A stretch of DNA of 64,000 bases, taken from NCBI GenBank assembly GCA_021796435.1, contig JAJYXM010000016.1, positions 310,625-374,624 of the forward strand. The letters are read 5' to 3'. Positions 35,691 through 53,779 of the stretch are shown here, one piece after another (within the stretch, counting starts at the first letter, position 1; each line of letters opens with the position of its first letter). The notes below the pieces were generated by a model. That model was given only the letters and a program-made list of their open reading frames with translations. It ran no database searches and was not told where the DNA came from. A program made the translations under genes and the position numbers. The stretch comes from a bacterium (GTDB lineage: Bacteria; Patescibacteriota; Patescibacteriia; 2-12-FULL-60-25).

Positions 35691-35697
35691 AAATTCC

Positions 35698-36141: not shown

Positions 36142-36150
36142 TAGAACAAA

Positions 36151-36323: not shown

Positions 36324-36336
36324 CATAATACTCGCC

Positions 36337-38214
36337 ATGCAAAAAAATAGAGCGTTCCTCTTTTCATTTTTGAAAACTGCCACCGGACGGGTGCTGTTTT
36401 TCGCCCTCATAAGCGCCGTGGTCGTGACTCTCTTGCCGGTAGAAATCAGGGCACAGACTGACGTCGGGGTCAATAACGTCCAGCAGGTAGCGAATACGGC
36501 CGGCTTGGCTGGAGGGTCGGATTTGATAACCATCATCGGGAGGATAATCAACATCTTCTTAGGCTTCTTAGGGTTGGTGTTCTTGGTGTTGATGCTTTAC
36601 GCCGGATTCACCTGGATGACCGCGGCGGGTGATGCGGATAAGATCAAGAAAGCGCAGGGGACCATCCGTAATGCGATCATCGGTCTGGTCATCATAGCTT
36701 CGGCTTGGGCGATAACATCGTTCATCCTCGGCATTTTCGCAGGACAGGGTTTGGGCGGCATCGGTGGTGGAGGACCTAGCGGGCCGTTGGCGCCATTCTC
36801 TTCAGCGCCAGGTTCGGCTTGCTTGGGCAAGGGGATAATCGAGACGCATCTGCCGGACAGGAACTCTACCGGTATACCGAGGAATTCGCCGATTATCATA
36901 ACGTTCAAGGAGCCGATGAAGCCTGACACGATAATGAAGGGGTGGACGGATGCCACGAGCAATACCCAGATGGAATGGCCCTTGGAGGATAAGAACGTGC
37001 TCATCTATCGGACGGTGCAGGGTCAGGATGCGGCCATGGGATCGGACCAGATAAAGGTCAGATATACCAAGGATCTGAAGACGTTCGTCTTCAAACCGGC
37101 TGATTATTTGGGGAGCCCGACCGAGAAGATCGGCTATACCGTAGTTTTAAAAGGAAGCAAGAACGGTATCCTGAAGGCAGACGGTTCTCCTGCTCTGACT
37201 TGTTCACCGAACAATGAATATTCCTGGCAATTCGAGGTGTCGACAGTGCTTGATCTCACTCCGCCTTATGTGACTGCGGTCATCCCGCCGGCTGAAGGAC
37301 TATACGCGAGGAATATCATAGTGATGTTGAATTTCAATAAAGCCATGGATCCGACCGCGTCACAGGGTACGACGGCTGACGGTTTCCAGAATATCGAGAT
37401 TTTGGCTACGCCTAACGGGCAGACTGTAGGCATCCCGGTAACCGGAGAATTCAAGATCGTCAACCAGTACAGGACAGTCGAATTCGTGAGCGACGCGAAG
37501 TGCGGAACGAATTCATGCGGACGCGACGTCTATTGTTTGCCGGGCAATGCACAGATCCAAGTCAACGCCAAAGCTGGGACGTTGGATGGTCCAGGGCCGC
37601 AAGCCGTATTCACGACCAATGGTTATGACGGCTTGGTAAGCGTCGTCGGGAATTCTTTGGATGGCGACCACAACGACAAGGCGGAAGGTCCGCCGGGAGA
37701 TAATTATCAGTGGTCTTTCGGAACCTCGAATGACATCAAGCTATCACCGCCGGTGATCGTCAGCACGACGCCTGATTCAGACCCGAATACCGGTAAGAAT
37801 TCCAACGTATCATTGGACATGCCGATAACGGCGCTTTTCGATTCTTTCCTTCAGGCATCTACATTGAATTCGGATAACGTATACGTGGATGCCCATGGGA
37901 CTACCGAGCAACCGGATACTTTCTGGTGGACCGTCGGCATGAAGCTGGTCAAGAACGACGGGTCGGACATCGATACTACGACCGTACCGCCGGAAAAGCC
38001 GGAAGTCAGCGCGCTGACCATAGATCATCGGCCGTTCCAGCCGTCAGGAGTATTCCCGAACCTGAATTATTATGATCCATACATCACTTCCGGGGTGCAG
38101 GACGCTTATCAGAACTGTTTCGTACCGGCACGAAAATGCGGTGCAGGGAGCGGCGCCAATTGTTGCAAATTCCAACCCAACTCTGAAGTGTGCAAGAAAA
38201 TATTAAATCCATGA
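36337..38214 (+). CDS. Surface protein with signal peptide + TrbC/VirB2-pilin-like double-TM N-module, Gly linker and Ig-like domains
   Basis: The N-terminal 140 aa are about 55% identical to the N-terminus of the next gene. Hydrophobic helices IINIFLGFLGLVFLVLMLYAGFTWMTAAGD and NAIIGLVIIASAWAIT. TGA overlaps the ATG of the next gene (ATGA). Confidence 0.7.
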   Translation: MQKNRAFLFSFLKTATGRVLFFALISAVVVTLLPVEIRAQTDVGVNNVQQVANTAGLAGGSDLITIIGRIINIFLGFLGLVFLVLMLYAGFTWMTAAGDADKIKKAQGTIRNAIIGLVIIASAWAITSFILGIFAGQGLGGIGGGGPSGPLAPFSSAPGSACLGKGIIETHLPDRNSTGIPRNSPIIITFKEPMKPDTIMKGWTDATSNTQMEWPLEDKNVLIYRTVQGQDAAMGSDQIKVRYTKDLKTFVFKPADYLGSPTEKIGYTVVLKGSKNGILKADGSPALTCSPNNEYSWQFEVSTVLDLTPPYVTAVIPPAEGLYARNIIVMLNFNKAMDPTASQGTTADGFQNIEILATPNGQTVGIPVTGEFKIVNQYRTVEFVSDAKCGTNSCGRDVYCLPGNAQIQVNAKAGTLDGPGPQAVFTTNGYDGLVSVVGNSLDGDHNDKAEGPPGDNYQWSFGTSNDIKLSPPVIVSTTPDSDPNTGKNSNVSLDMPITALFDSFLQASTLNSDNVYVDAHGTTEQPDTFWWTVGMKLVKNDGSDIDTTTVPPEKPEVSALTIDHRPFQPSGVFPNLNYYDPYITSGVQDAYQNCFVPARKCGAGSGANCCKFQPNSEVCKKILNP

Positions 38215-41200
38215 AGGTACGTAACATTTTCGCCATAGCGTCTATCGGACTCGGCCTGGCGGCGGGTACGATGTTTCTGTCGGCCCACGCCGTACGAGCA
38301 CAGGTCGATACGGGGTTGCAGCAGGTGGGGCAGACGGTGAAGCTTTCAGGGACTGACCCGCGCACTATAGCCGCGAACATCATCAATATCGCGTTGGGCT
38401 TGGTGGGTATCGTGCTCGTCGGTCTGATACTTTACGGTGGCTTCCTGTACATGACGTCGGCCGGTGACAGCGCCAAAGTGGATAAAGCCAGGAAAGTCAT
38501 CACCAACGCCATAATCGGTCTGGTCATAGTGTTGTCGGCTTGGGCCATCACCAGATACGTAATAGATAAGTTGTTGCAGGCGACGCAGGAAGGCGGAGGC
38601 GTCGGTGGAGGTGCTAGCTCTGGTTATGTCGGAGGGTTCGGCAGCGGAACGGGCGGCAGCAGCTTCAGGATAGTCTCGATCACTCCGCAAGGCAGCCAGC
38701 CTGGGAAGCCAAGGAATACCGTAGTCAAGATCCTTTTGACCAAGGCCGTGGATGAAGCGACAGCTTCTGCCGTTACCGTGGTCAAAGATGGCGGTACGAC
38801 CGTCGGAGGCACTATTGCGGTTCAAGGGACGCTTGTGACGTTTACGCCGGTACAAGCCTGTCCTTCGCCGAACGAAACACGTAAATGTTTCGACGCCGAT
38901 TCGGCCTTTACGATTAAAGTCGGGACAAGCCTGAAATCAGCTCAAGGACAGCCGATCGCTTGCGGCGGTTTTGCACCAGCATGCGAAGCGCATTTCACTA
39001 CAGGCAATCTGGTCGACGTTTCGGGCCCGAACGTGTCTTTGACCTTCCCGACGGACGGCATGTCGATCCAGCAGAATTATTATTCGGATGTCTTGGCTCA
39101 TGCGACAGACGATAGCGGCGTCGCAATCGTGCAATTTTTGGATGGCGCCGATGAGATCGGCAGCGACGGACCGAGTTCGGCGGATACGCCACTAAGTTTC
39201 GATGCCAAGATTTTTTGGGATACGGCTGGAGCTGCTTTAGGCGTGCATACCTTGACCGCAAAGGCGTTGGATTTGGATACGAACACGACGCAAAGCCAGA
39301 GCGTTTCGGTCGTCGTACGCCCGGAACATTGTTTCAACGGTAAACAGGATCAGGATGAGACTGGCATAGACTGTGGTGGTGATCCGAACAGCACGGATTT
39401 CTGTGGCGTATGCAGCGGTGGTTCGTGTACCAGTAATAGCCAATGTTCTTCGGGTTTTTGCCAAGGCGGGGTGTGTATCGAGAAGCCTGTGATCAAGTCA
39501 GTTTCTCCGTTGAACGGCAAGCCGGGTACTTTCGTCTCCATCGCGGGTACTAATTTCGGAACTAATCCGGGTACGGTCGTTTTCTTAGGTGACCCGAACA
39601 ATCCAGCCGACGATAAAATCGCAGTCGCGCCACAAGCCTGTGTCAATGCAGGAAGCCAAACATGGAGCAATACGCAGGCGATAGTTTCTTTGCCGGACGG
39701 TGCAGCTTCAGGGCCGATAGAAATCAAGAATGCTTCCAGCTCGTTGACCGACAGGACGGATCAAGATCCTGGGCCGGCAGTCGCAGATTTCGTCGTGGAT
39801 AATACGGAACATCCTGGGCTTTGTGCTTTGGATCCAGCGTCCGATAGCGTTGGCAAAAACGTGAAAGCTATAGGACAGGGTTTTGGAAATTCGCAGGGCA
39901 AGGTCATATTCGGTTCCCTGGACCAGCAACTGGCGGGATCACCGTGGTCTGACGCTAACGTCACATTCAAGGTTCCGGTCGTCAACAACGGGCCGTATCA
40001 GGTCTGGGTCCAGACAGGCGCAGGCACAAGTAATCCGGCACAGTTCGTGGTGACGGAAAAGAGCCTCGAAGCGGCTCCTGAATTGGATAGCCTCGATCCG
40101 ACGCAAGGCCCATTGCAGCAATATGTGACGCTGTATGGCAGGAATTTCGGATATAACGTAGGAACGGTGATTTTTTCCGCACAGGATGGTACCGAGGCGA
40201 TCGGTGACACGAGTTTTCCGGCTGCTTGCAGCGCAGGTTTCTGGTTGGATGACACGATCGTAGTCAAAGTCCCTTCGGTCTTCAAGAACGGTCAGGGATT
40301 GATCGACGGCACCTATCAGGTCAGGGTAAAACGTTCCGATAATAAGGAATCGGCCTCGTTGCCTTTCAATGTCAATAAATCCTTACCTCTCAAGCCAGGT
40401 ATCTGTGCCATCAGTCCCGCAGTCGGACCCGTGGGAACGGACGTGAAGATCTACGGTGAACGTTTCGGCTTCGACAAACCGTTGGTGTCTTTCAGCACGA
40501 GCAAGCAGGCTTTGGTGCAATCCAATACGAACCAGGAGGTGCAGACTTCGGTCCCGAATAATTCGATCACCGGTCCGGTGACGGTCACGAGCAATGCCGT
40601 CATCTCTAATGGTTTCAATTTCCAGGTCAGGAATTGCAATGAAGCCCCTGAAATCTGCGGACCGGTCGATAAGTTCCAATGTTGCCAGACTGGGGAGTGT
40701 CGACCAGCGGGACAGTCTTGCGCCGTTGCACCGACCGAATCCGAATATGCCTGGCAACTTTCCACAGGACTGATTCCGTTGGCGCCATACGTCATCGAAG
40801 AATGCCGTCCGGACATCACTCCAGCGCCGACTCCTTCACCATCTCCATGGAGTGGTAGAGCTGGTGGGGACCAGGCGCCGACCGATGCGGCGATAACGAT
40901 GCGTTTTTCGCAGCAGCTCGAAATGAGCACGGTCACCAAACAAGCTTTCCATATATACGCCTGCAAAGGCGCCTCGGCCGATCCTTGCGATACGAAGGAA
41001 GCAATCCAGGATTTCACCATGCACTTGACCCACGAGAACAATCAGCAGGATTTGGTGACGTTGAATCCGAGCGCGAAGTTCGCGACCAATACCACATATC
41101 TGGTGACCATCTCGACAGACATAAAGGGCGCAGGCGAGACAGGGGCCAACATGATCGAGAACAAGGCCTGCGGCAAAGGCCAGAACAATGAGACTTATGG

Positions 41201-44200
41201 CTATTGTTTCAGGTTCAAGACGCGTGCTTCGGAAGAGCCGTCACAAGTCGGTTCGGTCGGCGTCGTTCCATCCAGCTATACCTTCAAGGAGACCGGAGTC
41301 TACATCGGCTACGAAGCCGTACCGACGGATGCACAAGATAAATGCATCGTCCTGGATTGCCAGCAGTTCAACTGGAATTGGCATGCCGGAGATACGCGCG
41401 GGTCGATCACCAACATGACCGGCGGACAATTCAATTACGGCCTGTGCAACCAGCAAGGGACGGGAAATTTCGAGACGGGTAACGTACCGGTGGACATACT
41501 TTCCGATCTGGCCGGCACCAGCCTCACGGGACAAGGCGAGATGTTCGTGAATTTCGTGCCGCCCCGCGTCGAGGAATATGCGCCGAAGTGCGACGAGGCG
41601 TGCAGCAATGCTTTGATCTGGGCCAGGTTCTCGGCCAAGCTCGATGCAGCTTCGGCCTTGACCCCGAACAACATCAAATTGCAGAAGTGTTATAACGAAA
41701 ATTGTTTCGAATCGGAATTGGGCCAGCCTATCGCCATCACGATGAACCTTAAGGACGATACGACGATCGAGATTTCGCATGCACCACTCGAAGCCGGAGG
41801 ATTCTATCGTCTTTTCCTGCGTGGCGGACCTAACGCCATAAATCCTGCCACACTGGAGAATAACGGAATCCAGGGCCTGAACGGCGTGCCGATGACGGGA
41901 ACCAACCATCCGGAAGGGTTTTTCTGGAAATTCCGTGTGTTGCAAGGGACCGCAGCTTTCTGCAAGGCGGAACGCGTAGACCTCAAACCTTTGGAGAAAT
42001 ACGAGACGAACGTCGATGCACGTCAGCTTTTCGAGGCGACGCCGTATAGCCCGCCGGATAAGTGCAGCTCTGATGGCCAGCAGTTGGTGAACCAGGGGGA
42101 TACACAATGGGCATCAGGCGATATCACGGTCGCGGATTTCTACAGACAGGCACAGTCTCTAATCAAGTCCGATAAGACGAAGCTGCCTGCAGGCTGTTCG
42201 TCAAAATGCTTAGCCATGGGAGCTGGCGGGTTGTTCGGCAAGGTCGCGATGTGCGGTAACGGCATCATAGAGACGACTGACGCGAATTATTGCGTAGGTG
42301 GAAAGACTCCCCGAGGTAGCGCATGTAAGCTCATGCCGGCTGGCGCGAAAGCAGGCGAGGAATGTGAGCCGACGATAGACGGTTTGGATAAGTGCGATGT
42401 CGCTACATGCTTGTTCCGTTCCGTGGCAGCTGTCAATCAGGGAGGCACTTGTGGTGACGGTACGGTGCAGGCCGCCGCTGGTGAAGCGTGTGATTACGGC
42501 CCGACATGCGTAGGCGGCAGTACAGCGACCAGCTCTACGCCTGTGCCTGAATATGCTTCATGTCCGGATGCGACGACCAAACAAGCTTGTGAAAACGCCG
42601 GAGGAGTATGCGCGATGCATGATTACCGCGGATGCTCGGCGAATTGTCGGCATACCGGAGCCAAGTCGGGCAAGACGACTTGCGGTAACGGAGATTTCCA
42701 CGGCGACGGAAAAGATTGCGATGACGGCAACGTGGCTAACGGCGATGGATGCAGTTCGGATTGTCTACACGAGCCGTCACAGCCATCTACCGTTTTAGCG
42801 GCGGTGTGCGGTAACGGTATTTTGGAAAAAGGCGAGACATGCGAAGCCACTATGGTGAACGGGAGCCCGGTTTTCGCTCCGGGATGCGACAGCAGTTCGT
42901 GTCTGCATACAGGTACCTTATCCTGCATGCCGGGTCAGAACCTCAGTTGCTGCGGTAATGCGGTGCTTGATCCAGGAGAGGACTGCGACGACGGCAACAC
43001 CGCCTCAAAAGACGGATGCAGCTCGAGTTGTCTGTTGGAAGGTTCATCAGCCTATTATTCCGCCGTACCTTCCGGTATCGCGCCGAGTTTCTGCGGCAAC
43101 GGTTATCTGGAGAAGGGCGAACAGTGCGAGGTGGGCGCTTCATCCGACAGTATCGCTAAATTGGTTTACGCAGGCCTGCCGAAGGACGCTGCCTTGGCAT
43201 GGTCGCCGGTCTTGAACAAGAGTTTCGCTAACATCCAAAGCGGCATCGACCCCATACAGTTGGCCAAAATAATCGGCGAAAAAGAACCCGATCCAGCGAC
43301 CGGAAGATCATCTTCCGAATTGAGCGCGGTGATGCTGGAACAGACGGGTAAAGCGACGTATGGCCTGCAGTGCGGCTATAACGACGAAGCGAATTGCACT
43401 CCGGATGACCTGTCTAACCCGCGCGGTCTGGATGATTTCGGTTGCTGCCGACTGCGTCCGATCGTGGCCAAGGCTTATCCGCCACCGCCGCCATTCGAGG
43501 CTTGCCGTAATGTCCAGATCCAGATCGAATTCAATCAGGCGATGGATACGGTATCGGTGACCAATAATTTCGAGATTTCTGAAGGTCCTGATGCAGCGAA
43601 CAAATGTCCGGACGGTACGCAGGAAGTCGTGTTGAACACTGATAATCAGCCGGGTTTCTGGAATTTCCTGAAACGCATTTGGCGCTCGATCGTCGCTTGG
43701 ATCTTTAAGCAGCCCGCCATAGCCGAGAAGTGGTGCGTAGGCAAAGTCACGGGACAACTCACCGCAGCCGATCAGCAATCGCAGGCGACTAAATTCATCT
43801 ACACTTTGGATCATGCCCTGGATGCCGGAAAGCTTTATCGTATCAGGTTGAAAGGCGACGATGATCTGACCGACAACGCTGACAAGAACGCACGGCATGG
43901 CATCAAGACGGCGGCTGGCGTGGTGCATGATGGCGACATCACATGGAACTTCAAGACGGGCAACCAAATCTGCGCCTTGAACACCGTCACGATATACGAT
44001 GTGACGCAGGATCCGCCGGACGAGAAGCATCCTTTCCTATACGTGAACAAAGGCAACAAGTCTGAAGAGAGGCATTTCGAGGCAGAGGCGCAATCACTGC
44101 AGAACGGCACGGCGATACCGCTTTCGACGACAGCTGAATACCAGTGGGATTGGCACGTCTGGACGACGAGCGATCCGGATTTGGTTAATTATAGCCCGAA

Positions 44201-47200
44201 TTATCCGATCCAACCGCCGACCTACAAAGGACATTTCGTTTCGGTGGTCGAGGGTAGCGCGCAAAAGAACGGGCACGCGATACTGACGGCCGGCATCAAA
44301 GTCGTCCACGACGAAGTTAACGTCCCGTCATCCACGGGTTCGGTAATACAAGGCGTGGCACATGTCGCGGTCTTGGCTTGCGAGAACCCATGGCCATCGC
44401 TGCAGACTTCTCCGTTCAGCGACACCAAGACTTGGTTGAACGACCGTTGGGCCGATCTGCCTGATTCAAGGCCTAACATCTTCATCGGCAACGATCCGTA
44501 TATCGGCAAACCGGTCTTCTACAATTTCTCCACCATGTATTGTCGCGATGCGGGCGTGGAGCATGACCAGACCGACGATCTGCCGGAACTCGTGATAAAC
44601 CAGGTGCCGCGAACCGCAGTGGACAAAGCAAACGGCATCTTGCGTCAATACCTTTTGACCTTCAAGGACGATGCCTTGAAGAAGGATGGTATCGGTATCC
44701 GTGTCGCCGAGAATCCGCAGCATCTGTCGGCTTTGGAGTGGTACTACTCGAAGGGCTTCGCAGGCAAACCGAAAGTGCTTAGCGTAGACGGATATCCGGC
44801 GGTCCAAGACGGCAATACGTTATATGTCGATGCCGCCAACCAACCCGAAACGAACGAATCGATATATTCGAACATCTATGTCTTCTCCTTGAATCCGGAT
44901 GCTCAGCAGGTGACGCAGGACATATTCAAACAGCTGGTCCAATATCTGGCTTTCAACGTCAACATCGTCGGTCAGAGCAATACCTGCCATATAGCAACGG
45001 GCGCGAACCAATACACGAATACCGACATCTACACCGACAGTCAGGGAGTACCGAAACGCTGCACCGCAGATTGGGAGTGTGCACCTTTGGATTCCTCGAG
45101 CAATCTGTTCTGCGATTCCAATAAGGCCAAGATGGCACGTGACACGCAGCGCATGGCTGATTTCCAGGCCATCAACAAACGGTTGCTGGAGACGCGAGAT
45201 GCGCAGGGCAGATATCTGCAGCTCCAGACCGGAACGTACCTTAAAGGATTGACGACCTCATTGTGGCCGTCATGGACGGATGAATTCGGGAAGGCCTTGG
45301 GCACCATGCCGGTTGATCCGATCGATAGGTTCTTGACTTGTGGAGAGTGCACTGACGGGAGTGTGTGCCAGACGGATAAGGACTGCGGGGAAAACGGCAA
45401 GTGCATGGGTAAACGTTTCGAGAACGGCGAATGGGTGGACGCACCGGATCTGGATCCGCAGACCTGTTGGAACTCTAAAGCGTTCACCTATACCTGTCCG
45501 GCTTATAAGACCGGCAATCCGTTCTCGGTCTCGCGTCTGTACCAGTACCGCTCCTTGGCCGGAGGCACACAGTATGAATTGGCTTCGGAGTTCGAAGTCC
45601 AACCAATGACATTGAACCAGAAAGACTGGTGGTACCCGGCATTGCCGAGCACCATGTACCAGTGCGTGAATCCAGGAGCGGTCGGCAGATATTGCAATGA
45701 CGGCAACGGCAATCCATCAGATGCCCTATGCCGTATATGCGCGAATCCAGCCAGCTGCAAACAGTGCAAGACGAGCGGTGCGGATTGCACGACTAACGCG
45801 GCAGTCTGTGCTGCGCCGGATACGTGCGTGGATGTAGCTTCGATCCCCGCGTCCTGTCGGCCTTTCGGGGGTACGTTCAAATATGCCGGAGTCTGCACCA
45901 ATCAAGCTTATGCCGAGAACGGGACTTGCGGAGACAAGGTCCTCAACAATAACGAACTATGTGAATTAGGCGACACAAAGTCCGAAACCTGTACCGTGAA
46001 CGGTAAGCCGGGACATCGCCAGCTGGCATGTAATGCGTGCACCAAGTTCGATGTGGATCCGCAGAGACCGCAGTGCGTGGAGGATTCGGTTTGTGGCAAT
46101 GGCCGTATAGATAAGGTTTGCGCCGGAAGTACGGTTTCGTGTTTAAGTAATGCTGACTGTACGGGAGGCGTGCTCTGCATCAATAATGAAGCATGCGATG
46201 ATGGGGTGGATAACGGTAAATACGGTCATTGCAACGCGACGTGTCAGGGCTATGCGGGGTTCTGTGGAGATGGTCAGCTTTCGCCAGGTGAAGTCTGTGA
46301 TAAGGGTGTGAACAATGGCCAGTGGAGCAACGCTTATAATGCAGCTACCTGTGCGACGAACTGCAAAGGCGTGGGTCCGTATTGCGGCGATGAGGAGATC
46401 AACGGCTCGGAAGAGTGTGACGGCGGTGCCCAGACGACGCAGGCTGCTTTCTGCATAAACGCCAACCCACCGACGCTTTGTGATACGAATGCCGATTGCC
46501 CGCAAGGTAAATTATGCGCGGGTAAAGCGGTCGCTCGTCTAGACGCAAAATCTTCCCGGACGTTAGCGTTCGTCCGTGGGAAGTTGGGTGAGGCTTGGTT
46601 GAATTATGTGTTGGTACCGGCGGTCCAGGCTGCACCTCCGCCACCCCAGCAACAGAATAGTTCCAACATAAATTCGGTCGTCTACACTAAGTTAAATATC
46701 TGGACCACTAACACCATCAAACCCGGTAAACTCAGCGGCGGGTTGCAGTTCATTCCTGCTATCCCTGGCGGTGGAGGCGGAGGACAACAGACGACGCAAT
46801 ATGTCGATGTCAACGGCAATAAGATAAACGTCACAGCGTTCAATTCATGCGAGGGTGTGTATGTCGTGGATTCAAACGGAATCAAGCGCGAGACGCAGCA
46901 CGTGAGGAACTGCAATGCTCCTGGCGCCACCAACTCCTGTAAGTGGAGCGACTGGACCGGTTGTGTCCCGGTCGGCATCTGTGGCGACGGCATCAAGGAC
47001 CTTAACGAAGCTTGCGATAATGGAGCAAATAACGGCGATACAAAAGCGTGCACCTCGCAGTGCAAGGTCAATACTTGCGGCGACGGTCTGTTGAATGTCG
47101 GGGTAGAGGAATGCGATTCAGGTGCGCAGAACGGCCAAGTGACCTGTAACGCCGACTATGATTCGTCCTGCCTATCGTGCAGCAATCTGTGCAAGTTCAT

Positions 47201-48839
47201 GGCTTCGGCTGGAGGATATTGCGGCGACGGGGTAAAGAACGGTCCGGAACAATGCGACGGCACTCAAGGCCTGACTGTAGGGAATTCTCCGGTGACATGT
47301 TCGATGTTGGGCTATGATTACGGAGTGAACGCGAACAATAATGCGACTTGTGCTTCGGATTGCAATTACGGCGGTTGCAAGCGTTGTTCGGACGAGCCAG
47401 GCGACGGAGTGATAGAGGGAAGGGTGTATGATGCGGTTTTCCAGCAGGTCGTCCCGAACGCACGTGTCAGCCTGATGTATAAAGGTGCGAAAGTGGAAGA
47501 GGCTTTCACGGATCAGGACGGCAAATATAAATTCGTCGACCTAAATAAAAATTCCGCCTGTACGAGCTACAGAATCGTCATCGACATGTATCAGGATAAC
47601 GTATGTACAGGCCAAGACCATGCTGGTTTCAATTGCTTCAGCGTCGGTGTCAGTCCATGGGTCTATCCGTATGCTCTGGATGAAGGGGCGAATGGAGGAT
47701 ATTTCTCTTTCACCACAGACCTTTTCAGCTTCAGTACCTATAAGAGCGTGTTGAACGGTGAAGATTTCGACTCGGTGCCTCATATCGACATATTCCCGCG
47801 TCCTGAAAGAGGCCGTGCATATATGGCTATGACATGGAAGCCGACCGGAGGGACCATAGGTTACAAGGCTCATACGATATTGCCTGATGTAAGCGCCTAT
47901 AAGGTCGTAGATTTTGATGGCGGAGATACGACCATGTCGTGCGATTACGCTACGCGTCCGACTGCCGACGGAAAGGCTTGTGCACGAGATATAAACTGGC
48001 GTGCCTGGGGCTCGTGGCAGATCGATACCTTGCCATATACCCGAATGATATGTCTAAGGCGTGTAGGTGAATTGACTTCTGGATGGTCGAGCTCGGCTTC
48101 GAACGGCTGTCCATTCGAAGGCGTGACGAGCTGTCTGCAGAGGGCGGGTAAGACACTCAGCAGCTGCGGGTGTACTGTCGATGCAGATGGCAAGAAAGTG
48201 ACGTGCACAAGCACAAACTCGGCCTGTTTGGCCTGTGGGGCTGACGTGAGCCATTCGTGCAATAAGGATGCCCACTTCGCTGACTGTGCTAACCCTGTGA
48301 CATATGGACCGATCACCGTTTTGACTAACTATACTGCCCTGATGAACCAGAGCGAGGACATCAAGTTCTACTTCAGCGCCGGTCCGGGCGATGCGGCATC
48401 GTTCAAATCAGCGATGTCGAATACCTCAAAGGGCTATAAGGCTTATACGGCCATAACTGATTTGTCTGGCGCATCGGAGCTGCAAGTGATCGAAAAGCCA
48501 TCAGATTCGGGTTGGTTCTGGGAAATCGCTCACTTACAGCCGAAGCAACAAAAGGTCGTCAAGATAGATAAATTAGCCGGTAGCGACAATGACATGGCTA
48601 CGACAATGCAGAATACTCCGACGTCCAATAAACCGAGTTATCTTGATGGTTGGGGAGCTTGGTCGCTGTTCTTCCAAGCCGGTGGGAAAAATTATTGCGT
48701 AAGCACGACCGATAACACGAAACTTCATCCGACCATCGGCCCATGCTATTGGGATACTCCTAAACAGATTTGTGCACAGACGGCGGGCTATCACTGTGCA
48801 GACGTGGATCCCACGACTTATTACAAATATAACTGGTGA
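38211..48839 (+). CDS. Giant (about 3,542 aa) cell-surface protein: pilin-like N-module, Ig-like domains, IPT/TIG domains, about 25 cysteine-rich CGDG/CGNG...CDDGN repeats, carboxypeptidase-regulatory-like domain, Cys/Trp-rich C-terminal domain
   Basis: Single uninterrupted ORF. IPT/TIG signatures (PVIKSVSPLNGKPGTFVSIAGTNFG; PELDSLDPTQGPLQQYVTLYGRNFG; PGICAISPAVGPVGTDVKIYGERFG). Repeats such as CGNGILEKGETCE, CDDGNVANGDGCSSDC and CGDGLLNVGVEECDSG, like the Myxococcus cysteine-rich repeat. CarbopepD-reg-like GRVYDAVFQQVVPNARVSL...TDQDGKYKF. Confidence 0.8.
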   Translation: MKVRNIFAIASIGLGLAAGTMFLSAHAVRAQVDTGLQQVGQTVKLSGTDPRTIAANIINIALGLVGIVLVGLILYGGFLYMTSAGDSAKVDKARKVITNAIIGLVIVLSAWAITRYVIDKLLQATQEGGGVGGGASSGYVGGFGSGTGGSSFRIVSITPQGSQPGKPRNTVVKILLTKAVDEATASAVTVVKDGGTTVGGTIAVQGTLVTFTPVQACPSPNETRKCFDADSAFTIKVGTSLKSAQGQPIACGGFAPACEAHFTTGNLVDVSGPNVSLTFPTDGMSIQQNYYSDVLAHATDDSGVAIVQFLDGADEIGSDGPSSADTPLSFDAKIFWDTAGAALGVHTLTAKALDLDTNTTQSQSVSVVVRPEHCFNGKQDQDETGIDCGGDPNSTDFCGVCSGGSCTSNSQCSSGFCQGGVCIEKPVIKSVSPLNGKPGTFVSIAGTNFGTNPGTVVFLGDPNNPADDKIAVAPQACVNAGSQTWSNTQAIVSLPDGAASGPIEIKNASSSLTDRTDQDPGPAVADFVVDNTEHPGLCALDPASDSVGKNVKAIGQGFGNSQGKVIFGSLDQQLAGSPWSDANVTFKVPVVNNGPYQVWVQTGAGTSNPAQFVVTEKSLEAAPELDSLDPTQGPLQQYVTLYGRNFGYNVGTVIFSAQDGTEAIGDTSFPAACSAGFWLDDTIVVKVPSVFKNGQGLIDGTYQVRVKRSDNKESASLPFNVNKSLPLKPGICAISPAVGPVGTDVKIYGERFGFDKPLVSFSTSKQALVQSNTNQEVQTSVPNNSITGPVTVTSNAVISNGFNFQVRNCNEAPEICGPVDKFQCCQTGECRPAGQSCAVAPTESEYAWQLSTGLIPLAPYVIEECRPDITPAPTPSPSPWSGRAGGDQAPTDAAITMRFSQQLEMSTVTKQAFHIYACKGASADPCDTKEAIQDFTMHLTHENNQQDLVTLNPSAKFATNTTYLVTISTDIKGAGETGANMIENKACGKGQNNETYGYCFRFKTRASEEPSQVGSVGVVPSSYTFKETGVYIGYEAVPTDAQDKCIVLDCQQFNWNWHAGDTRGSITNMTGGQFNYGLCNQQGTGNFETGNVPVDILSDLAGTSLTGQGEMFVNFVPPRVEEYAPKCDEACSNALIWARFSAKLDAASALTPNNIKLQKCYNENCFESELGQPIAITMNLKDDTTIEISHAPLEAGGFYRLFLRGGPNAINPATLENNGIQGLNGVPMTGTNHPEGFFWKFRVLQGTAAFCKAERVDLKPLEKYETNVDARQLFEATPYSPPDKCSSDGQQLVNQGDTQWASGDITVADFYRQAQSLIKSDKTKLPAGCSSKCLAMGAGGLFGKVAMCGNGIIETTDANYCVGGKTPRGSACKLMPAGAKAGEECEPTIDGLDKCDVATCLFRSVAAVNQGGTCGDGTVQAAAGEACDYGPTCVGGSTATSSTPVPEYASCPDATTKQACENAGGVCAMHDYRGCSANCRHTGAKSGKTTCGNGDFHGDGKDCDDGNVANGDGCSSDCLHEPSQPSTVLAAVCGNGILEKGETCEATMVNGSPVFAPGCDSSSCLHTGTLSCMPGQNLSCCGNAVLDPGEDCDDGNTASKDGCSSSCLLEGSSAYYSAVPSGIAPSFCGNGYLEKGEQCEVGASSDSIAKLVYAGLPKDAALAWSPVLNKSFANIQSGIDPIQLAKIIGEKEPDPATGRSSSELSAVMLEQTGKATYGLQCGYNDEANCTPDDLSNPRGLDDFGCCRLRPIVAKAYPPPPPFEACRNVQIQIEFNQAMDTVSVTNNFEISEGPDAANKCPDGTQEVVLNTDNQPGFWNFLKRIWRSIVAWIFKQPAIAEKWCVGKVTGQLTAADQQSQATKFIYTLDHALDAGKLYRIRLKGDDDLTDNADKNARHGIKTAAGVVHDGDITWNFKTGNQICALNTVTIYDVTQDPPDEKHPFLYVNKGNKSEERHFEAEAQSLQNGTAIPLSTTAEYQWDWHVWTTSDPDLVNYSPNYPIQPPTYKGHFVSVVEGSAQKNGHAILTAGIKVVHDEVNVPSSTGSVIQGVAHVAVLACENPWPSLQTSPFSDTKTWLNDRWADLPDSRPNIFIGNDPYIGKPVFYNFSTMYCRDAGVEHDQTDDLPELVINQVPRTAVDKANGILRQYLLTFKDDALKKDGIGIRVAENPQHLSALEWYYSKGFAGKPKVLSVDGYPAVQDGNTLYVDAANQPETNESIYSNIYVFSLNPDAQQVTQDIFKQLVQYLAFNVNIVGQSNTCHIATGANQYTNTDIYTDSQGVPKRCTADWECAPLDSSSNLFCDSNKAKMARDTQRMADFQAINKRLLETRDAQGRYLQLQTGTYLKGLTTSLWPSWTDEFGKALGTMPVDPIDRFLTCGECTDGSVCQTDKDCGENGKCMGKRFENGEWVDAPDLDPQTCWNSKAFTYTCPAYKTGNPFSVSRLYQYRSLAGGTQYELASEFEVQPMTLNQKDWWYPALPSTMYQCVNPGAVGRYCNDGNGNPSDALCRICANPASCKQCKTSGADCTTNAAVCAAPDTCVDVASIPASCRPFGGTFKYAGVCTNQAYAENGTCGDKVLNNNELCELGDTKSETCTVNGKPGHRQLACNACTKFDVDPQRPQCVEDSVCGNGRIDKVCAGSTVSCLSNADCTGGVLCINNEACDDGVDNGKYGHCNATCQGYAGFCGDGQLSPGEVCDKGVNNGQWSNAYNAATCATNCKGVGPYCGDEEINGSEECDGGAQTTQAAFCINANPPTLCDTNADCPQGKLCAGKAVARLDAKSSRTLAFVRGKLGEAWLNYVLVPAVQAAPPPPQQQNSSNINSVVYTKLNIWTTNTIKPGKLSGGLQFIPAIPGGGGGGQQTTQYVDVNGNKINVTAFNSCEGVYVVDSNGIKRETQHVRNCNAPGATNSCKWSDWTGCVPVGICGDGIKDLNEACDNGANNGDTKACTSQCKVNTCGDGLLNVGVEECDSGAQNGQVTCNADYDSSCLSCSNLCKFMASAGGYCGDGVKNGPEQCDGTQGLTVGNSPVTCSMLGYDYGVNANNNATCASDCNYGGCKRCSDEPGDGVIEGRVYDAVFQQVVPNARVSLMYKGAKVEEAFTDQDGKYKFVDLNKNSACTSYRIVIDMYQDNVCTGQDHAGFNCFSVGVSPWVYPYALDEGANGGYFSFTTDLFSFSTYKSVLNGEDFDSVPHIDIFPRPERGRAYMAMTWKPTGGTIGYKAHTILPDVSAYKVVDFDGGDTTMSCDYATRPTADGKACARDINWRAWGSWQIDTLPYTRMICLRRVGELTSGWSSSASNGCPFEGVTSCLQRAGKTLSSCGCTVDADGKKVTCTSTNSACLACGADVSHSCNKDAHFADCANPVTYGPITVLTNYTALMNQSEDIKFYFSAGPGDAASFKSAMSNTSKGYKAYTAITDLSGASELQVIEKPSDSGWFWEIAHLQPKQQKVVKIDKLAGSDNDMATTMQNTPTSNKPSYLDGWGAWSLFFQAGGKNYCVSTTDNTKLHPTIGPCYWDTPKQICAQTAGYHCADVDPTTYYKYNW

Positions 48840-49141
48840 TTATGGAGAAGAAAGCGCTGATATTCTATGTCGCGGTGACTTTGGTCGGTTTGGGGATCAT
48901 GGCTGGTTTGGTGCTGTACTTGAGGAGCCGTAATGCACCTAACGTAATACCGGTAGCAATACAAAGCACGACATCGACTGCGGCAGTACAAAATCTTACA
49001 GGCAATCAGACCAACTCAAAAGTGAGATATGCAGTGCCGTTGGATAAAATCCCTAAGGCTGAATCATACAAACCAGGGGACCCCATAAACGAACAATTAC
49101 CCACACTAACAATTTCGCCAGACGGTCAATTAGATCAATAA
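48836..49141 (+). CDS. Small single-TM membrane protein
   Basis: GTG/ATG start overlapping the giant gene stop; TM FYVAVTLVGLGIMAGLVLYL. Confidence 0.4.
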   Translation: MIMEKKALIFYVAVTLVGLGIMAGLVLYLRSRNAPNVIPVAIQSTTSTAAVQNLTGNQTNSKVRYAVPLDKIPKAESYKPGDPINEQLPTLTISPDGQLDQ

Positions 49142-49146
49142 TCACT

Positions 49147-50205
49147 ATGTTCGACAACGTACCCCCGAATCTGCCGGTAGAACCGGCCAATCAGACGCCG
49201 CCACCTCCGCCACCTACGCCCTCCGGCAATCAACCGAAACCGATCGTCGTCGGGCAACCCAAGAAAGAACCCGAGGATATCTTTTCGGACATCAATGTGG
49301 GCGGTGACGACATACAGACCGCACCATCTAGTCAGGATATCTACAGCGCACCGAAGAAGTCGGCTTTGCCTTTGGCCGCCGTGATAGTCGTTGCGATTAT
49401 CGTGTTAGGGGGAATAGCTTTTGCAGTATGGTATTTCCTGTTGCGGCAGGAGAGCGTCCCGGCTCCTGCCTCGAATACGACGCAGACTACACAGCCTGCG
49501 CCTGTCCAGCAGCAGCCGGAGATCGTCGAACAGCCTCCTGTGACGGCGAATGAGGTGACGACCGTGCCCCCGGCAGGTACGAATATCCCCTTGCCGGAAC
49601 AGACGGAGCAACCTACGACCACCGAAAACATGCCCGCCGAAGCGTCGACGGAACCGGCTGTGCCACCTCCGCCAGCAGCGGTGATTACGGAAGGTGTAGA
49701 TTCCGATAGCGATGGGCTGACTGATGTGGAGGAGGCGTTACTCGGGACAAACCCACAACTTGCCGATACTGATGGTGACGGATACAGCGACGGCAGCGAA
49801 GTGATGAACCTATACAGCCCTTTGGCGGCGAACCAGCCTTTATCCGCAGACCCAAGCTTCAGTCCAGCGACTTGGGAAGCGAAGTCGCCGCTTAACAGCT
49901 ATACTTGGACGTTTTTGCGGCCTAAGGCATGGCTCCTTAACGGAGAGTCGGTGATGCAAGCTGTACTTTCGACCGATACGTCTGCACGATTCGTCTTCAG
50001 CCTAGCTACGAAAGCGGATATCCCGCCTGGCGCCACTTTCAAGACGAAATCCGGTTTGGATGCCGTAAGGACAGAAGATCGTCTGACCACGTATGTCTAT
50101 TCGGGTGACGCCGTCATAGCTGTGACCTATGATCCGAATGGAGCGGCGACTTATGAGTATAGAACGTTATACGACGAACTGGTGAACTCGCTGCATCTGC
50201 AATGA
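49147..50205 (+). CDS. Membrane-anchored surface protein with Pro-rich linker, TSP3/dockerin-like Ca-binding motif and a C-terminal domain shared with the next gene
   Basis: TM LPLAAVIVVAIIVLGGIAFAVWYFLL; DSDSDGLTDVEEALLGTNPQLADTDGDGYSDGSEV; C-terminus ...YEYRTLYDELVNSLHLQ. Confidence 0.5.
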   Translation: MFDNVPPNLPVEPANQTPPPPPPTPSGNQPKPIVVGQPKKEPEDIFSDINVGGDDIQTAPSSQDIYSAPKKSALPLAAVIVVAIIVLGGIAFAVWYFLLRQESVPAPASNTTQTTQPAPVQQQPEIVEQPPVTANEVTTVPPAGTNIPLPEQTEQPTTTENMPAEASTEPAVPPPPAAVITEGVDSDSDGLTDVEEALLGTNPQLADTDGDGYSDGSEVMNLYSPLAANQPLSADPSFSPATWEAKSPLNSYTWTFLRPKAWLLNGESVMQAVLSTDTSARFVFSLATKADIPPGATFKTKSGLDAVRTEDRLTTYVYSGDAVIAVTYDPNGAATYEYRTLYDELVNSLHLQ

Positions 50206-50290
50206 GTGCCTAGGTGAGACCGATCGGAGCACGGACGTATATAGAAAAAATTAGTGCGGCAAGGTAAAATCATGATGACCACATCCTTTT

Positions 50291-51646
50291 ATGCCTGAAG
50301 AACAGATGAAACAAAACACGGCTGCAGCTGCAGAACCGGAAATAGTAGTCATACCGGAGAAGTACTACGGTGCTGCTTTGCGAGCTAAGGCTCCTGAGAT
50401 GGCGCCTATGCCTCAGCAGACATTGGAGAAACCCAAGAAGAGCCATGTTTTGCCTATCGTGATCGTTGTCGTCGTCCTGTTGATAGGTGCCGCCGCCGCT
50501 TTCGTCTATCTCAATCAGGAGTTGTTTTTCCCCAAGCCAGCGCCTACGCCGCAACCCGTCGTCGAGACGCCGGTCGAACCGACACCTGTGCCGCCTCCCG
50601 CCGCTCCGCTCAACCTAGCGGCTACATCGACTAATCCGCAGAGCGTCGCGATATCCTGGACCGATAATTCGGATAACGAATCAGGTTTCCGTCTGGAGCG
50701 TGCTGAAGGCACTGGCCCATTCTTCGCTTTGACCAATCTTCCGCCGAACAGCAGTTCTTTCCTGGATGTTTCGGTCAAAGCAGACACGACATATCGTTAT
50801 CGTGTATTCGCCTCTAACCAGTCTGGAGATTCCGCTCCATCAAACGAGTCCACGGCGCAAGTCCCACCATTACCGCCGGCGCCACCTGAACAGCAGAAGC
50901 TGCCACCGGCAGGTCTGGACAGCGACTCTGATGGTCTGACTGATCTGGAGGAGGACCTATTCAAGACGAACAAGAACAATCCAGACACCGACGGAGACGG
51001 ATTCTTGGACGGCAATGAGGTATTCCATCTGTACAACCCGAATGGTCAGGCGCCAGCCCGTCTGATTGACGCCGGTCTGGTCAAGGAGGTCAAGGGAAGC
51101 GTGGGTTGGACGATGCAGATACCGAGCGTCTGGAACATGAGGTTAGATAAGACTGACGGCACTGCTGCCACGATCGATAGCGGGCATGGCGAGACCTTCA
51201 TCCTCACCATACAGGATAATCCGAACAGGTTACCGATAATCGATTGGTATCTCGAGAAGAATCCTGATGTGCAACGCAGCGAAATATTGGTCTACAGGTC
51301 CAAGCAGGGTTATGACGGAATCATCGGTAAAGACCTATTGACTACGTACATACCCTGGGAAGATAAAGTCTTCGTATTCAAGTACGATATCGACGGCCAG
51401 CAGTACATAAACTATCGGACGACATATTCGATGATGTTGAATTCCCTCATCCTGCAGGGTATGCCGCAGGTTTCTCCGCCGGTAGCAGGGACACCGTTGC
51501 CTTTCGAACCAGCCGCTACGACCACAGGGGTCGTAAACCAGCCACAAGCCGTCGATGTATTCCCTTCGCCCGGAGAACAGACGCCCCTTGAGGGAACAGA
51601 GGGTCTGACGGCTACCACTACAGAGACGGTAAATCCAGCGCCATGA
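50291..51646 (+). CDS. Membrane-anchored surface protein, paralog of 49147-50205, with fibronectin type III domain
   Basis: TM VLPIVIVVVVLLIGAAAAFVYL; FN3-like PLNLAATSTNPQSVAISWTDNS...TTYRYRVFASN; DSDSDGLTDLEEDLFKTNKNNPDTDGDGFLDGNEV; C-terminus ...YINYRTTYSMMLNSLILQ. Confidence 0.55.
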   Translation: MPEEQMKQNTAAAAEPEIVVIPEKYYGAALRAKAPEMAPMPQQTLEKPKKSHVLPIVIVVVVLLIGAAAAFVYLNQELFFPKPAPTPQPVVETPVEPTPVPPPAAPLNLAATSTNPQSVAISWTDNSDNESGFRLERAEGTGPFFALTNLPPNSSSFLDVSVKADTTYRYRVFASNQSGDSAPSNESTAQVPPLPPAPPEQQKLPPAGLDSDSDGLTDLEEDLFKTNKNNPDTDGDGFLDGNEVFHLYNPNGQAPARLIDAGLVKEVKGSVGWTMQIPSVWNMRLDKTDGTAATIDSGHGETFILTIQDNPNRLPIIDWYLEKNPDVQRSEILVYRSKQGYDGIIGKDLLTTYIPWEDKVFVFKYDIDGQQYINYRTTYSMMLNSLILQGMPQVSPPVAGTPLPFEPAATTTGVVNQPQAVDVFPSPGEQTPLEGTEGLTATTTETVNPAP

Positions 51647-52089
51647 TTGAGATAGATTTGATCGAAGACGCCAAGTCAGGGCTCCCGAAGAAACAGCTTT
51701 TGGGGGCAGTGAGGAGCGTTTTGGATAAGAAGGACGCGAAGCAGGACCTTTATCTGAGTATCGTGTTCATCACGGCCGCGAAGATGAAGAGATTGAACAA
51801 AAAATATCGTCATAAGGATAAAGCCACTGATGTATTATCCTTTCCGGCGGATGTGACGCTTCCGGACGGAACGGAGGTCAGGTCTTTAGGTGATATCTTC
51901 ATCTGTCCTAGTTATGTGGCAGATGCGGCGCGTGAGATTGGCGTCGATTTCGATGAACAGGTGTTGCGCGTATTGGTACATGGCGTATTGCATCTTTTGG
52001 GCTATGATCACGAGAAAAAAGATGATGAAGGCAAGATGCTGCGCCTACAGGAACGTATGCTTAAGCGGTATATGAAGGCTTCTTTATGA
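51643..52089 (+). CDS. ybeY: rRNA maturation endoribonuclease YbeY
   Basis: HGVLHLLGYDHE zinc-binding motif; 4-nt overlap with the upstream gene. Confidence 0.9.
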   Translation: MIEIDLIEDAKSGLPKKQLLGAVRSVLDKKDAKQDLYLSIVFITAAKMKRLNKKYRHKDKATDVLSFPADVTLPDGTEVRSLGDIFICPSYVADAAREIGVDFDEQVLRVLVHGVLHLLGYDHEKKDDEGKMLRLQERMLKRYMKASL

Positions 52090-52460
52090 GTTTTATCCGT
52101 GGTTTAGGCGATAGTTTTTCACATGCCTGGAGAGGCCTGCGTTTGGCGTTCGTCAGCGAGAGGAGCTTCCGTATCCAGATCGTAGCAGCCACGGCCGTGT
52201 TGTTCGTAATTTTAGTCTTGCCGTTGAAGGAGCATGAGCGTCTGATACTGATACTGGCCGCAGGGGCGGTTCTTGTGCTAGAATTACTGAACAGCGCAGT
52301 CGAAAGGTTGGTGGATTTGTCGAAACCGAGGTTGCATGCGTTCGCGAAGGATATCAAAGACATCATGGCTGCTGCGGTTTTAGTTGCTTCGGTATTTTCT
52401 TTAGTCATAGGGATAATCGTCTTATGGCCGTATATCGGTGAACTTTTCCGTCTTTTATGA
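52086..52460 (+). CDS. dgkA: Diacylglycerol kinase (prokaryotic DgkA family)
   Basis: Three-TM DAGK_prokar-like sequence; conserved ybeY-dgkA adjacency; 4-nt overlap. Confidence 0.85.
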   Translation: MSFIRGLGDSFSHAWRGLRLAFVSERSFRIQIVAATAVLFVILVLPLKEHERLILILAAGAVLVLELLNSAVERLVDLSKPRLHAFAKDIKDIMAAAVLVASVFSLVIGIIVLWPYIGELFRLL

Positions 52461-53734
52461 AAGAACGCCTCATCATTGGTCTTGACCTAGGTTCATCGCG
52501 GATCCGTATCGCGGTGGGTCAACTTAATGTAGGTGCGGATAAGCAGGTTAAACTGAATCTGATAGGTGCGACGGAAGTGTCCTCGCAGGGTATAGCAAAG
52601 GGCAATATCACCGCGCTGGAAGACGCGGTAAGCGCGATTTCTTCCTGTTTGGAGCAGGCGGAGCGCATGATAGGCATGCCGTTGCCGGAAGCCACCGTGG
52701 GTTTGGGAGGGACTACTATATCGTCGCAAGATGCCAAGGGCGTCATAGGTGTTTCGAGGACGGATGGCGATATCAGGGCCGAAGATGTCGCGCGCGTAGT
52801 CGAGGCAGCTAAAGCTTTGGTGAACCCGGCGAACCAAGATATCTTGCATATCCTGCCGCGCAGTTTCACGGTCGATGGGCAGATCGGCATCAAGGATCCG
52901 ATCGGCATGCAGGGCATCCGTCTCGAAGTCGATGCCGTCATCGTCCAAGGGCTATCTTCGCAAGTCAGGAACATCACAAAAGCCGTTTTCCGTACGGGTT
53001 TGGACATCTCTTATCTCGTATATTCTCCGTTAGCTACGGCTGAAGCCATCTGTACGTCGCGACAAAAGGAGCTGGGCGTATGCGTGTTGAATATCGGTGC
53101 AGCGACCACGGGCGTCGCGGTATATGAGAACGGCGAGCTGTTGAAGGCCGTGACCATACCTTTAGGTGCCGATCACATCACCTCCGATATCGCCATCGGC
53201 TTGAAGATAGCTTTGGAAGCAGCCGAGAACATCAAGGTGATGCACGGCACGGCCAACCCCGAAACATTACCCAAACGCGGTGCGGATATCGACCTGATAG
53301 ATTACGGTTCAGGACAAAGCGAAATAGTTCCGTTACGCTATGTATCCGAGATCATCGAGGCCCGCGTCGAAGAGATTTTCGAGCGTGTCGACGCCGAGCT
53401 CAAGAAGATCGATAGGCAGGGGATGCTTCCGGCAGGCATAATCATGACCGGAGGTGGAGCGAAACTGCCCGGCATGGTCGAAGTAGGGAAGCGTGTATTG
53501 AAGTTGCCCTGCGCCTACGGCGTGACGCAGAACGTATCAAGCTCGATGCCCGAATTGGTCGAGGACCCTGCATACAGTACGGCCGTCGGATTGGTCATGT
53601 GGACGTTCGAGAACGAAAGGCGCGAGCAAGATGGTGTTTTGACGGCTATCGGTGGATTGGGGAGTAAGGGTTCGCAGTTGTTGAGTAAAATAGGCAGCCC
53701 GATAAAAAAGATCTTCAAATCATTCATGCCCTAA
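52457..53734 (+). CDS. ftsA: Cell division protein FtsA
   Basis: Actin-like ATPase motifs (IIGLDLGSSRIRIAVG, GGGTTISS, MTGGGAKLPG). Confidence 0.9.
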   Translation: MKERLIIGLDLGSSRIRIAVGQLNVGADKQVKLNLIGATEVSSQGIAKGNITALEDAVSAISSCLEQAERMIGMPLPEATVGLGGTTISSQDAKGVIGVSRTDGDIRAEDVARVVEAAKALVNPANQDILHILPRSFTVDGQIGIKDPIGMQGIRLEVDAVIVQGLSSQVRNITKAVFRTGLDISYLVYSPLATAEAICTSRQKELGVCVLNIGAATTGVAVYENGELLKAVTIPLGADHITSDIAIGLKIALEAAENIKVMHGTANPETLPKRGADIDLIDYGSGQSEIVPLRYVSEIIEARVEEIFERVDAELKKIDRQGMLPAGIIMTGGGAKLPGMVEVGKRVLKLPCAYGVTQNVSSSMPELVEDPAYSTAVGLVMWTFENERREQDGVLTAIGGLGSKGSQLLSKIGSPIKKIFKSFMP

Positions 53735-53779
53735 AGTCAGTGGCAAAAGAGACGCTCAATCAAGCGTTTTTTATTTGGC

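Follow-up and report, generated by a model that had tools for sequence, protein, structure and literature searches.

Three small co-oriented genes are located between the gene of a giant surface protein and ybeY in a 64,000-nucleotide (nt) stretch of a Patescibacteria contig (assembly GCA_021796435.1, contig JAJYXM010000016.1, positions 310,625 to 374,624), which as a whole is called the window here. As the initial annotation had it, all three are open reading frames (ORFs) of the + strand, namely P1 (48836..49141), P2 (49147..50205) and P3 (50291..51646), encoding bitopic proteins of 101, 352 and 451 amino acids (aa), respectively. The trio is an undescribed family and gene module made from known parts, and it is widespread in one large radiation within the Candidate Phyla Radiation (CPR). 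The giant gene upstream (38190..48839, + strand) encodes 3,549 aa with a T4SS_pilin N-terminal anchor followed by Big_5, Big_7 and TIG immunoglobulin (Ig)-like domains.

Architecture of the three proteins

Each protein of the trio has a single strongly hydrophobic segment, situated at residues ~8–30 in P1, 74–99 in P2 (49366..49443, + strand) and 53–74 in P3 (50447..50512, + strand). For P2 this transmembrane (TM) helix is also seen in the AlphaFold2 (AF2) model, again over residues 74–99. P1 consists of the N-terminal TM helix and a remainder without any Pfam or NCBIfam match or recognised domain. P2, which represents type A, is composed of a cytoplasmic tail, the TM helix, a disordered stalk, a pair of thrombospondin type 3 (TSP3) repeats and a PsbP-like C-terminal domain. 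Its stalk (49444..49692, + strand) is rich in Pro, Thr and Gln and predicted to be disordered, with a predicted local distance difference test (pLDDT) of 53–63 over residues 101–170. P3, representing type B, has a cytoplasmic tail, the TM helix, a stalk, a fibronectin type III (FN3) domain, a TSP3 pair, a PsbP-like C-terminal domain and a Pro/Thr-rich tail. The single TM helix and the Pro/Thr stalk of both proteins had already been recognised in the initial annotation. A topology of the three proteins with the N-terminus inside and the C-terminus outside is suggested by the sequences, because a signal peptide is missing, a Lys-Lys pair stands ahead of the TM helix and the domains are of extracytoplasmic types.

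The genes are tightly packed. P1 and P2 are separated by 5 nt and P2 and P3 by 85 bp in the window, and the stop codon of P3 overlaps the start of ybeY (ATGA at 51643–51646). A GTG start of P1 at 48836 would overlap the TGA of the giant gene by 4 nt (GTGA), as was proposed initially, but this overlap holds only if the GTG is chosen. Since homologues begin with MEKK or MDKR, the ATG at 48842 is the likelier start; this favoured candidate would give a protein of 99 aa and a gap of 2 nt behind the giant-gene stop codon. In Falkowbacteria-like loci an additional ORF of ~63–65 aa with a C-terminal TM segment occurs between type A and type B (10745–10936 in locus L086, 10684–10881 in a second locus); it is absent from the window. 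Identical sequences of P1, P2 and P3 exist also on a contig of 1,522,766 bp, which is large for a Patescibacteria genome, and a 98 %-identical P2 is found on a 380-kb contig.

TSP3 repeats and the FN3 domain

The domain content was determined by a Pfam scan at E ≤ 1, scores being compared with the gathering cutoff. TSP3_bac (PF18884) matches P2 with 35.1 bits (cutoff 25, E = 1.2e-8) in two stretches. P3 reaches 16 bits and thus stays under the same cutoff, though its loop motif is identical in type, and many P3 homologues hold a precomputed PF18884 match. A regular-expression search finds two tandem DxDxDGxxDxxE loops in each protein. In P2 the pair covers 49693..49821 (+ strand) with the loops DSDSDGLTDVEE (49699–49734) and DTDGDGYSDGSE (49765–49800); in P3 it covers 50912..51040 (+ strand) with the loops DSDSDGLTDLEE (50918–50953) and DTDGDGFLDGNE (50984–51019). 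The TSP3-type repeats that had been noted in both genes are therefore present. They form the best-conserved part of the family, with a mean column conservation of 0.83 among 32 P3 orthologues and with Asp, Gly and Glu columns that are invariant across 40 sequences. The loops are 12 residues long and spaced at 22 residues, a short helix comes after each of them, and the motif suggests that they bind Ca2+.

The FN3 domain reported for P3 (50603..50857, + strand, residues 105–189) lies above the gathering score as well (fn3, PF00041, 33.2 bits versus 25, E = 6.2e-8). Only part of the family has one, as it was found in 34 of 80 related loci.

Two Ca loops with a short helix each also occur in type I dockerins, and the initial annotation had proposed a dockerin-like motif by which the proteins could dock onto the giant protein. 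The 12-residue length of the loops, their distance of 22 residues and the adjoining giant gene speak for this idea. In such a case the giant protein would bear cohesin modules, and the two loops would plug into them as a dockerin. However, Pfam assigns TSP3_bac and returns no Dockerin_1 match at E ≤ 1 in P2 or P3, where very weak matches may fall to the HMMER filters. The Pfam search for a cohesin-like partner in the giant protein ended without a match at E ≤ 1, only T4SS_pilin, Big_5, Big_7, TIG and a weak SdrD_B being listed. Furthermore, the loops of P2 and P3 are predicted as a single rigid unit with the C-terminal domain and not as a docking module of their own (see below), and two to five copies of the repeat form the C-terminal end of type A and position-1 proteins in other lineages, which is the pattern of TSP3 and not of dockerins. 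Dockerin–cohesin docking is regarded as highly improbable.

The shared C-terminal domain

The initial annotation had described a shared C-terminal domain of about 190 aa. A common domain exists, but its size and composition have to be revised, because the region consists of the TSP3 pair (~45 aa) and a globular domain of 125–140 aa, which is located at 49822..50202 in P2 and at 51041..51460 in P3 (both + strand). Residues 205–395 of P3 were modelled with AF2 from an alignment of 40 sequences, resulting in a mean pLDDT of 96.3 and a predicted template modelling score (pTM) of 0.91. In this model two short helices follow the two Ca loops, and an alpha/beta sandwich comes next. The TSP3 loops and the C-terminal domain form one confidently predicted unit in both AF2 models (pTM 0.91, pLDDT > 95). 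The sandwich superposes on PsbP and Mog1, and the predicted structure of the domain thus has a PsbP/Mog1-like fold.

Sequence identity to the structural neighbours is only 7–16 %. PsbP, Mog1, LpqN and Apa score alike, and the fold match is therefore generic. At the sequence level neither P2 nor P3 has a Pfam match at E ≤ 1 to the PsbP, DcrB or Lpp-LpqN families, the domain is covered by no other Pfam family at this threshold either, and a profile of the domain compared with the PDB sequences gave only PsbP (2xb3, E = 0.43). A profile of the C-terminal domain alone yielded 1,657 cluster representatives (clusters at 50 % identity) among 1.84 billion at E ≤ 1e-3, 1,277 of which at E ≤ 1e-10. All matches of this search are proteins of 150–620 aa with the domain at their C-terminal end or close to it. 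Its mean conservation among the 32 P3 orthologues is 0.60. A helix segment of ~16 residues (around 49990–50040 of the window) is missing in P2 and its closest relatives (69–98 % identity); it is kept by the other P2 orthologues and by all P3-type proteins.

The PsbP/Mog1-like fold generally serves as a binding module for proteins or ligands on the outer side of membranes and is known from envelope lipoproteins, from immunity proteins of the type VI secretion system (T6SS) and from photosystem II. Compared with such envelope proteins (cyanobacterial PsbP, mycobacterial LpqN, Apa and MTC28, DcrB, and the T6SS proteins Tsi3 and TplEi), P2 and P3 possess a TM helix and a long stalk instead of a lipid anchor or a soluble form, and their heads always have the TSP3 pair in front. 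A second comparison concerns thrombospondin, in which the "wire" of type 3 repeats is packed on a C-terminal globular domain. The models of P2 and P3 resemble this signature domain in that repeats of the Ca type would be packed as a unit on a C-terminal globular domain. However, two loops stand against about thirteen, the globular fold is PsbP-like and not L-type lectin-like, and homology is seen in the loops only.

Relationship between P2 and P3

BLASTP with composition adjustment aligns 188 aa of P2 and P3 with 32 % identity (E = 5e-25). Included in this stretch are the Ca loops and the C-terminal domain, while the Pro/Thr stalks lie outside it. Because the C-terminal domains alone still give E = 8e-12, the similarity is not due to low complexity, a possibility that the initial annotation had raised itself. 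The proteins had been regarded as paralogs, which is correct for the C-terminal halves; in their N-terminal halves the two proteins represent separate families, each of them conserved. In a rough neighbour-joining tree the C-terminal domains group by P2 type and P3 type, apart from a single exception, and the distance is 0.87 between the two groups and 0.77 within them. This deep split indicates an old duplication rather than recent copying of the neighbouring gene.

Across related loci three protein types occur in a fixed order. Position 1 is taken by a protein with an N-terminal TM helix, which is short and without TSP3 in the clade of the window and has 200–330 aa with TSP3 repeats elsewhere. 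Type A at position 2 starts with MF[DE]…P.NLP and has a [DE]P[EQ]D[IM]F motif, followed by the TM helix, the stalk and two to five TSP3 loops. In other clades it stops directly after the repeats (GYNPNGPGKL); P2 itself combines the N-terminal half of type A with the PsbP-like domain, a form common to many orthologues. Type B at position 3 is characterised by the tail motif [IV]x[VT][MI]P[KE]x[FY], the TM helix, the stalk, in some cases FN3, two TSP3 loops and the PsbP-like domain.

Conserved cytoplasmic motifs

The N-termini, which had been called short, comprise 73 aa in P2 and 52 aa in P3 and contain conserved motifs that had been missed. The first motif of P2 (49147..49185, + strand, MFDNVPPNLPVEP) has the consensus MFDxxPPNLPVEP in the alignment of 46 orthologues and was also found in 56 loci. 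The second one, KEPEDIF, is located at 49264..49284 (+ strand). The 46 orthologues show no variation at M1, P6, N8, P10 and P42 and a conservation of at least 90 % at F2, D3, L9, P13, E41, E43, D44, I45 and F46, so that the motif positions, Ca-loop residues aside, belong to the best-kept ones of the protein. Type A proteins from further CPR lineages have this [DE]DIF motif as well. A resemblance of KEPEDIF to the C-terminal peptide of FtsZ was considered and is too weak to be claimed. In P3 the motif is situated at 50333..50395 (+ strand, EPEIVVIPEKYYGAALRAKAP); its consensus is EPEIxVIPxxYYGAALKA, which becomes [IV]x[VT]MP[KE]x[FY]R in other clades. The mean conservation of this motif is 0.70 in 32 orthologues compared with 0.29–0.34 in the flanks. 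Within the window the tail motifs occur only in P2 and P3. Judged from these sequences, the conserved tails imply that both proteins may make specific cytoplasmic contacts.

Conservation of the gene cluster

Downstream of P3 follow ybeY (51643–52089), dgkA (52086–52460), ftsA (52457–53734) and ftsZ (53848–55224), all on the + strand and with overlapping junctions as far as ftsA; nrdR, htrA and pyk are located behind ftsZ. A scan of species-representative genomes found at least 390 relatives, of which the best 80 loci were kept, most of them titled Candidatus Uhrbacteria or Patescibacteria. A second scan, seeded with a type B protein of the Falkowbacteria-like kind, added divergent metagenome loci with 25–44 % identity. 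Three metagenomic homologue loci have the same gene order as the window.

In the best 80 loci a homologue of the giant gene lies directly upstream wherever at least 4 kb of upstream sequence is available (62/62), and ybeY-dgkA-ftsA-ftsZ follows downstream in 71 of 71 loci. The exact order was parsed in 68 of these, the other three being artefacts of overlapping stop-to-stop ORFs or of a missed ybeY. In 18 of the divergent loci the upstream sequence extends over 5 kb or more. All 18 contain, no further than 3.5 kb upstream, an ORF of at least 800 aa, which in 15 of them shows giant or pilin homology. Among the divergent loci ybeY is adjacent in 26/30 and ftsA within 2.5 kb in 19/21. In L086 and L170 ybeY is absent and ftsA-ftsZ lies 6–8 kb further downstream, while the trio still stands directly after pilin-anchored large proteins; in L169 other genes are inserted between dgkA and ftsA, the trio again being found beside large surface genes. 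The linkage to large surface genes persists at 25–30 % identity, also where the giant gene is split and where some of the large genes upstream encode LamG- and VWA-domain proteins. Hence, the large surface genes are the most constant neighbours, ybeY is next, and ftsA-ftsZ is a frequent but breakable one. The cluster, in the order of a 625-aa Ig protein, the giant protein, P1, P2, P3, ybeY, dgkA, ftsA and ftsZ, is specific to Patescibacteria (Uhrbacteria and related groups). The tie to the giant protein that was proposed initially thus receives indirect support from gene linkage (62/62 and 18/18), but not in the form of dockerin docking.

Many metagenome-assembled genome records that carry the Uhrbacteria-type cluster are titled "uncultured Gammaproteobacteria bacterium" (L007–L009, L014, L017, L018 and others), and L041 is titled Vicinamibacterales. 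These records are likely mislabelled or mis-binned.

The proximity to ftsA and ftsZ raises the possibility that P2 and P3 are connectors coupled to division, following a logic as in FtsN or ZipA. Their tails would then bind FtsA or FtsZ, and the trio would be placed at the septum or the new pole, where it would connect the divisome with the assembly of the wall or surface. Besides the unbroken downstream string in 71/71 loci and the nearby ftsA in 19/21 divergent ones, the overlap of the P3 stop with the ybeY start and the further overlapping junctions through to ftsA are in line with this idea. The same is true of the tail motifs, as MFDxxPPNLPVEP and KEPEDIF are the best-conserved positions of P2 outside the Ca loops and the P3 motif clearly exceeds its flanks (0.70 versus 0.3). 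In addition, P2 and P3 are organised like FtsN, with a short conserved peptide in the cytoplasm, one TM helix, a long linker rich in Pro and a globular domain at the C-terminus; the cytoplasmic peptide of FtsN binds FtsA (PMC7613929). In contrast to FtsN, P2 and P3 have no SPOR domain in the Pfam scan, their C-terminal fold being PsbP-like, share no sequence similarity with it and are encoded beside ybeY instead of ftsA, with ybeY and dgkA interposed; FtsA binding is putative and drawn by analogy. No POTRA or FtsQ domain was found in P2 or P3 either, and an identity as FtsQ/DivIB, which is defined by POTRA and the FtsQ/DivIB C-terminal domain, was rejected. The neighbourhood is also interrupted: in some lineages the trio remains attached to the surface genes but is separated from ftsA-ftsZ by unrelated genes over 3–8 kb (clpP, secDF, wzy, pilD or three unknown ORFs), and L109 has no ftsA within 9 kb. 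Coupling to division, which would be compatible with a tether function as discussed below, is considered rather unlikely. A further step, for which the probability seems lower still, would be that the giant protein and the trio constitute one CPR-specific, division-coupled surface apparatus in which the motifs bind FtsA or FtsZ and the giant structure is built or placed at the septum or new pole. If this holds true, the trio would join the divisome to the envelope in these reduced bacteria by a TSP3/PsbP-like head instead of the usual SPOR or POTRA domains.

Gene order may also have been preserved without a common function. P2 and P3 could act on their own as Ca2+-dependent adhesins or in host contact, the CPR cell being epibiotic in this view. 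That the invariant string includes ybeY and dgkA as well means that linkage need not reflect a shared role. Furthermore, TSP3 and FN3 are common adhesin modules, the TSP3 repeats match the Myxococcus adhesins CglD and MtsD below threshold, and the structural neighbour Apa is a fibronectin-binding protein. However, a surface-gene linkage that outlasts divergence down to 25–30 % identity, giant-gene splitting and the occurrence of LamG and VWA proteins among the large genes argues against mere persistence, as does the conserved order of three positions, and conserved cytoplasmic motifs would not be expected in a simple adhesin. Such an independent role appears improbable.

The giant protein and the upstream genes

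The conserved cluster starts with the gene of the 625-aa protein (36337..38214, + strand), which has an N-terminal membrane hairpin of the T4SS_pilin type and a Big_5 domain. It gives a pilin-like match in NCBIfam and is conserved upstream in L002 and other loci. Within the giant protein a Cys-rich core of about 300 aa (44580–45569, + strand, residues ~2131–2460) is conserved and contains many invariant Cys, Trp and Asp positions. This core is the part of the giant protein that is common to the upstream large surface proteins of all CPR lineages sampled. Its profile has no match in Pfam or among the PDB sequences, and a homologue search with the core gave nothing, though homologues are present in the related loci that were collected.

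By analogy to T6SS Tsi3 and TplEi, which act on effectors, one could think of the PsbP-like head as an immunity or inhibitor-like module that neutralises or regulates an enzymatic or toxic domain of the giant protein. But no enzyme or toxin domain was recognised there by Pfam, which lists pilin-anchor, Ig-like and TIG domains only, and the core is without a Pfam or PDB-sequence match. The TM helix, the stalk of 80–130 aa and the TSP3 pair are unlike known immunity proteins, and the similar scores of PsbP, Mog1, LpqN and Apa mark the resemblance to this class as generic. The chance that such a role applies is judged to be very small.

A perfect palindromic hairpin with a 15-bp stem between A and T runs is located at 36152–36185, ~150 bp upstream of the 625-aa gene, and is probably a bidirectional terminator at the start of the transcription unit of the cluster. 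It falls inside a 224-aa ORF of the minus strand (35668–36342) that has no Pfam match and may be spurious. The promoter and terminator scan of the window gave fewer matches than shuffled controls and indicated no internal units, save for this hairpin and a site after ftsA. At the latter site (53747–53808) a terminator-like hairpin right behind ftsA is followed by a promoter-like TTGACG-17-TATGCT before ftsZ. In a scan that overall did not exceed what shuffled sequence yields, this suggests that ftsZ may be transcribed from a promoter of its own. With Rfam only a tRNA-Val was detected. Far upstream, at 10932–11984, an ORF of 350 aa with a CARDB domain and one TSP3-like loop (DDDNDGLYDFQE at 11490) encodes another probable surface protein.

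Proposed function

The reading that we favour, with about an even chance of being right, is that the trio forms Ca2+-stiffened tethers or adaptors which span the envelope and belong to the surface apparatus of the giant protein. On their stalks outside the membrane the TSP3 and PsbP-like heads would contact the giant protein or the wall, and the trio would hold, space or organise the giant protein or its wall layer so that a defined distance to the membrane is kept. Inside the cell, the motifs of the tails would serve as a contact for anchoring or positioning of the apparatus. In this scheme the outer partner is presumed to be the giant protein or the wall, and an inner partner is expected to exist. 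The invariant Ca-loop columns, the rigid unit of TSP3 and C-terminal domain, the tight gene junctions and the linkage to large surface proteins in every sample support a tether. TSP3 repeats are present also in OmpA_C-containing envelope proteins of diderms, as the Pfam columns show, and in the Myxococcus adhesin CglD (bioRxiv 10.1101/2023.10.19.562135), which is a sub-threshold match here; both occurrences are consistent with a role in the envelope or in adhesion.

P2 and P3 share with these bacterial TSP3 proteins (PF18884) the tandem DxDxDGxxDxxE loops in an extracytoplasmic linker or head. They differ by the N-terminal TM anchor, the limitation to two loops, the fusion to a PsbP-like domain and the absence of OmpA_C, VWA and beta-barrel domains; the CPR cell itself is probably monoderm. 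In NCBIfam the matches to CglD and MtsD fall far short of the cutoff and are confined to the repeats. Like those to GltJ, FliL, RodZ and DotF, they are sub-threshold matches to repeats or low-complexity sequence and were rejected. The names "RodZ", "FliL" and "PilX" given in some sources were dismissed as well, as they go back to the TM helix and a low-complexity region.

Several points weigh against a tether. The conserved string also takes in the housekeeping genes ybeY and dgkA, which have no evident tie to the surface, and gene order can therefore persist here even between functionally unrelated genes. The PsbP-like fold is of a generic kind that names no ligand, and a purely extracellular tether leaves the strongly conserved cytoplasmic motifs unexplained. 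Finally, the proposed contact with the giant protein follows from gene linkage, and the presumed Ca2+ binding and topology follow from motif and domain type.

Significance

No description of the trio, of a family combining TSP3 with a PsbP-like domain or of the cluster was found in the literature; a survey of VirB2-like and T4SS_pilin proteins in Patescibacteria (PMC12102498) does not include these genes. Newly defined are a domain family, consisting of a TSP3 pair and a PsbP-like head with ~1,650 clusters at 50 % identity and without a Pfam model, two bitopic families with sharply conserved cytoplasmic peptide motifs, and a deeply conserved cluster that ties the trio to giant pilin-anchored proteins and, in most lineages, to ftsA-ftsZ. 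Patescibacteria account for a large part of the diversity of bacteria, and little is known about the construction of their surface, their attachment to hosts and their division. The peptides of 10–20 residues and the soluble heads of 170–190 aa are small, testable reagents for the function of the giant proteins and for a coupling between surface and division in these ultrasmall bacteria.

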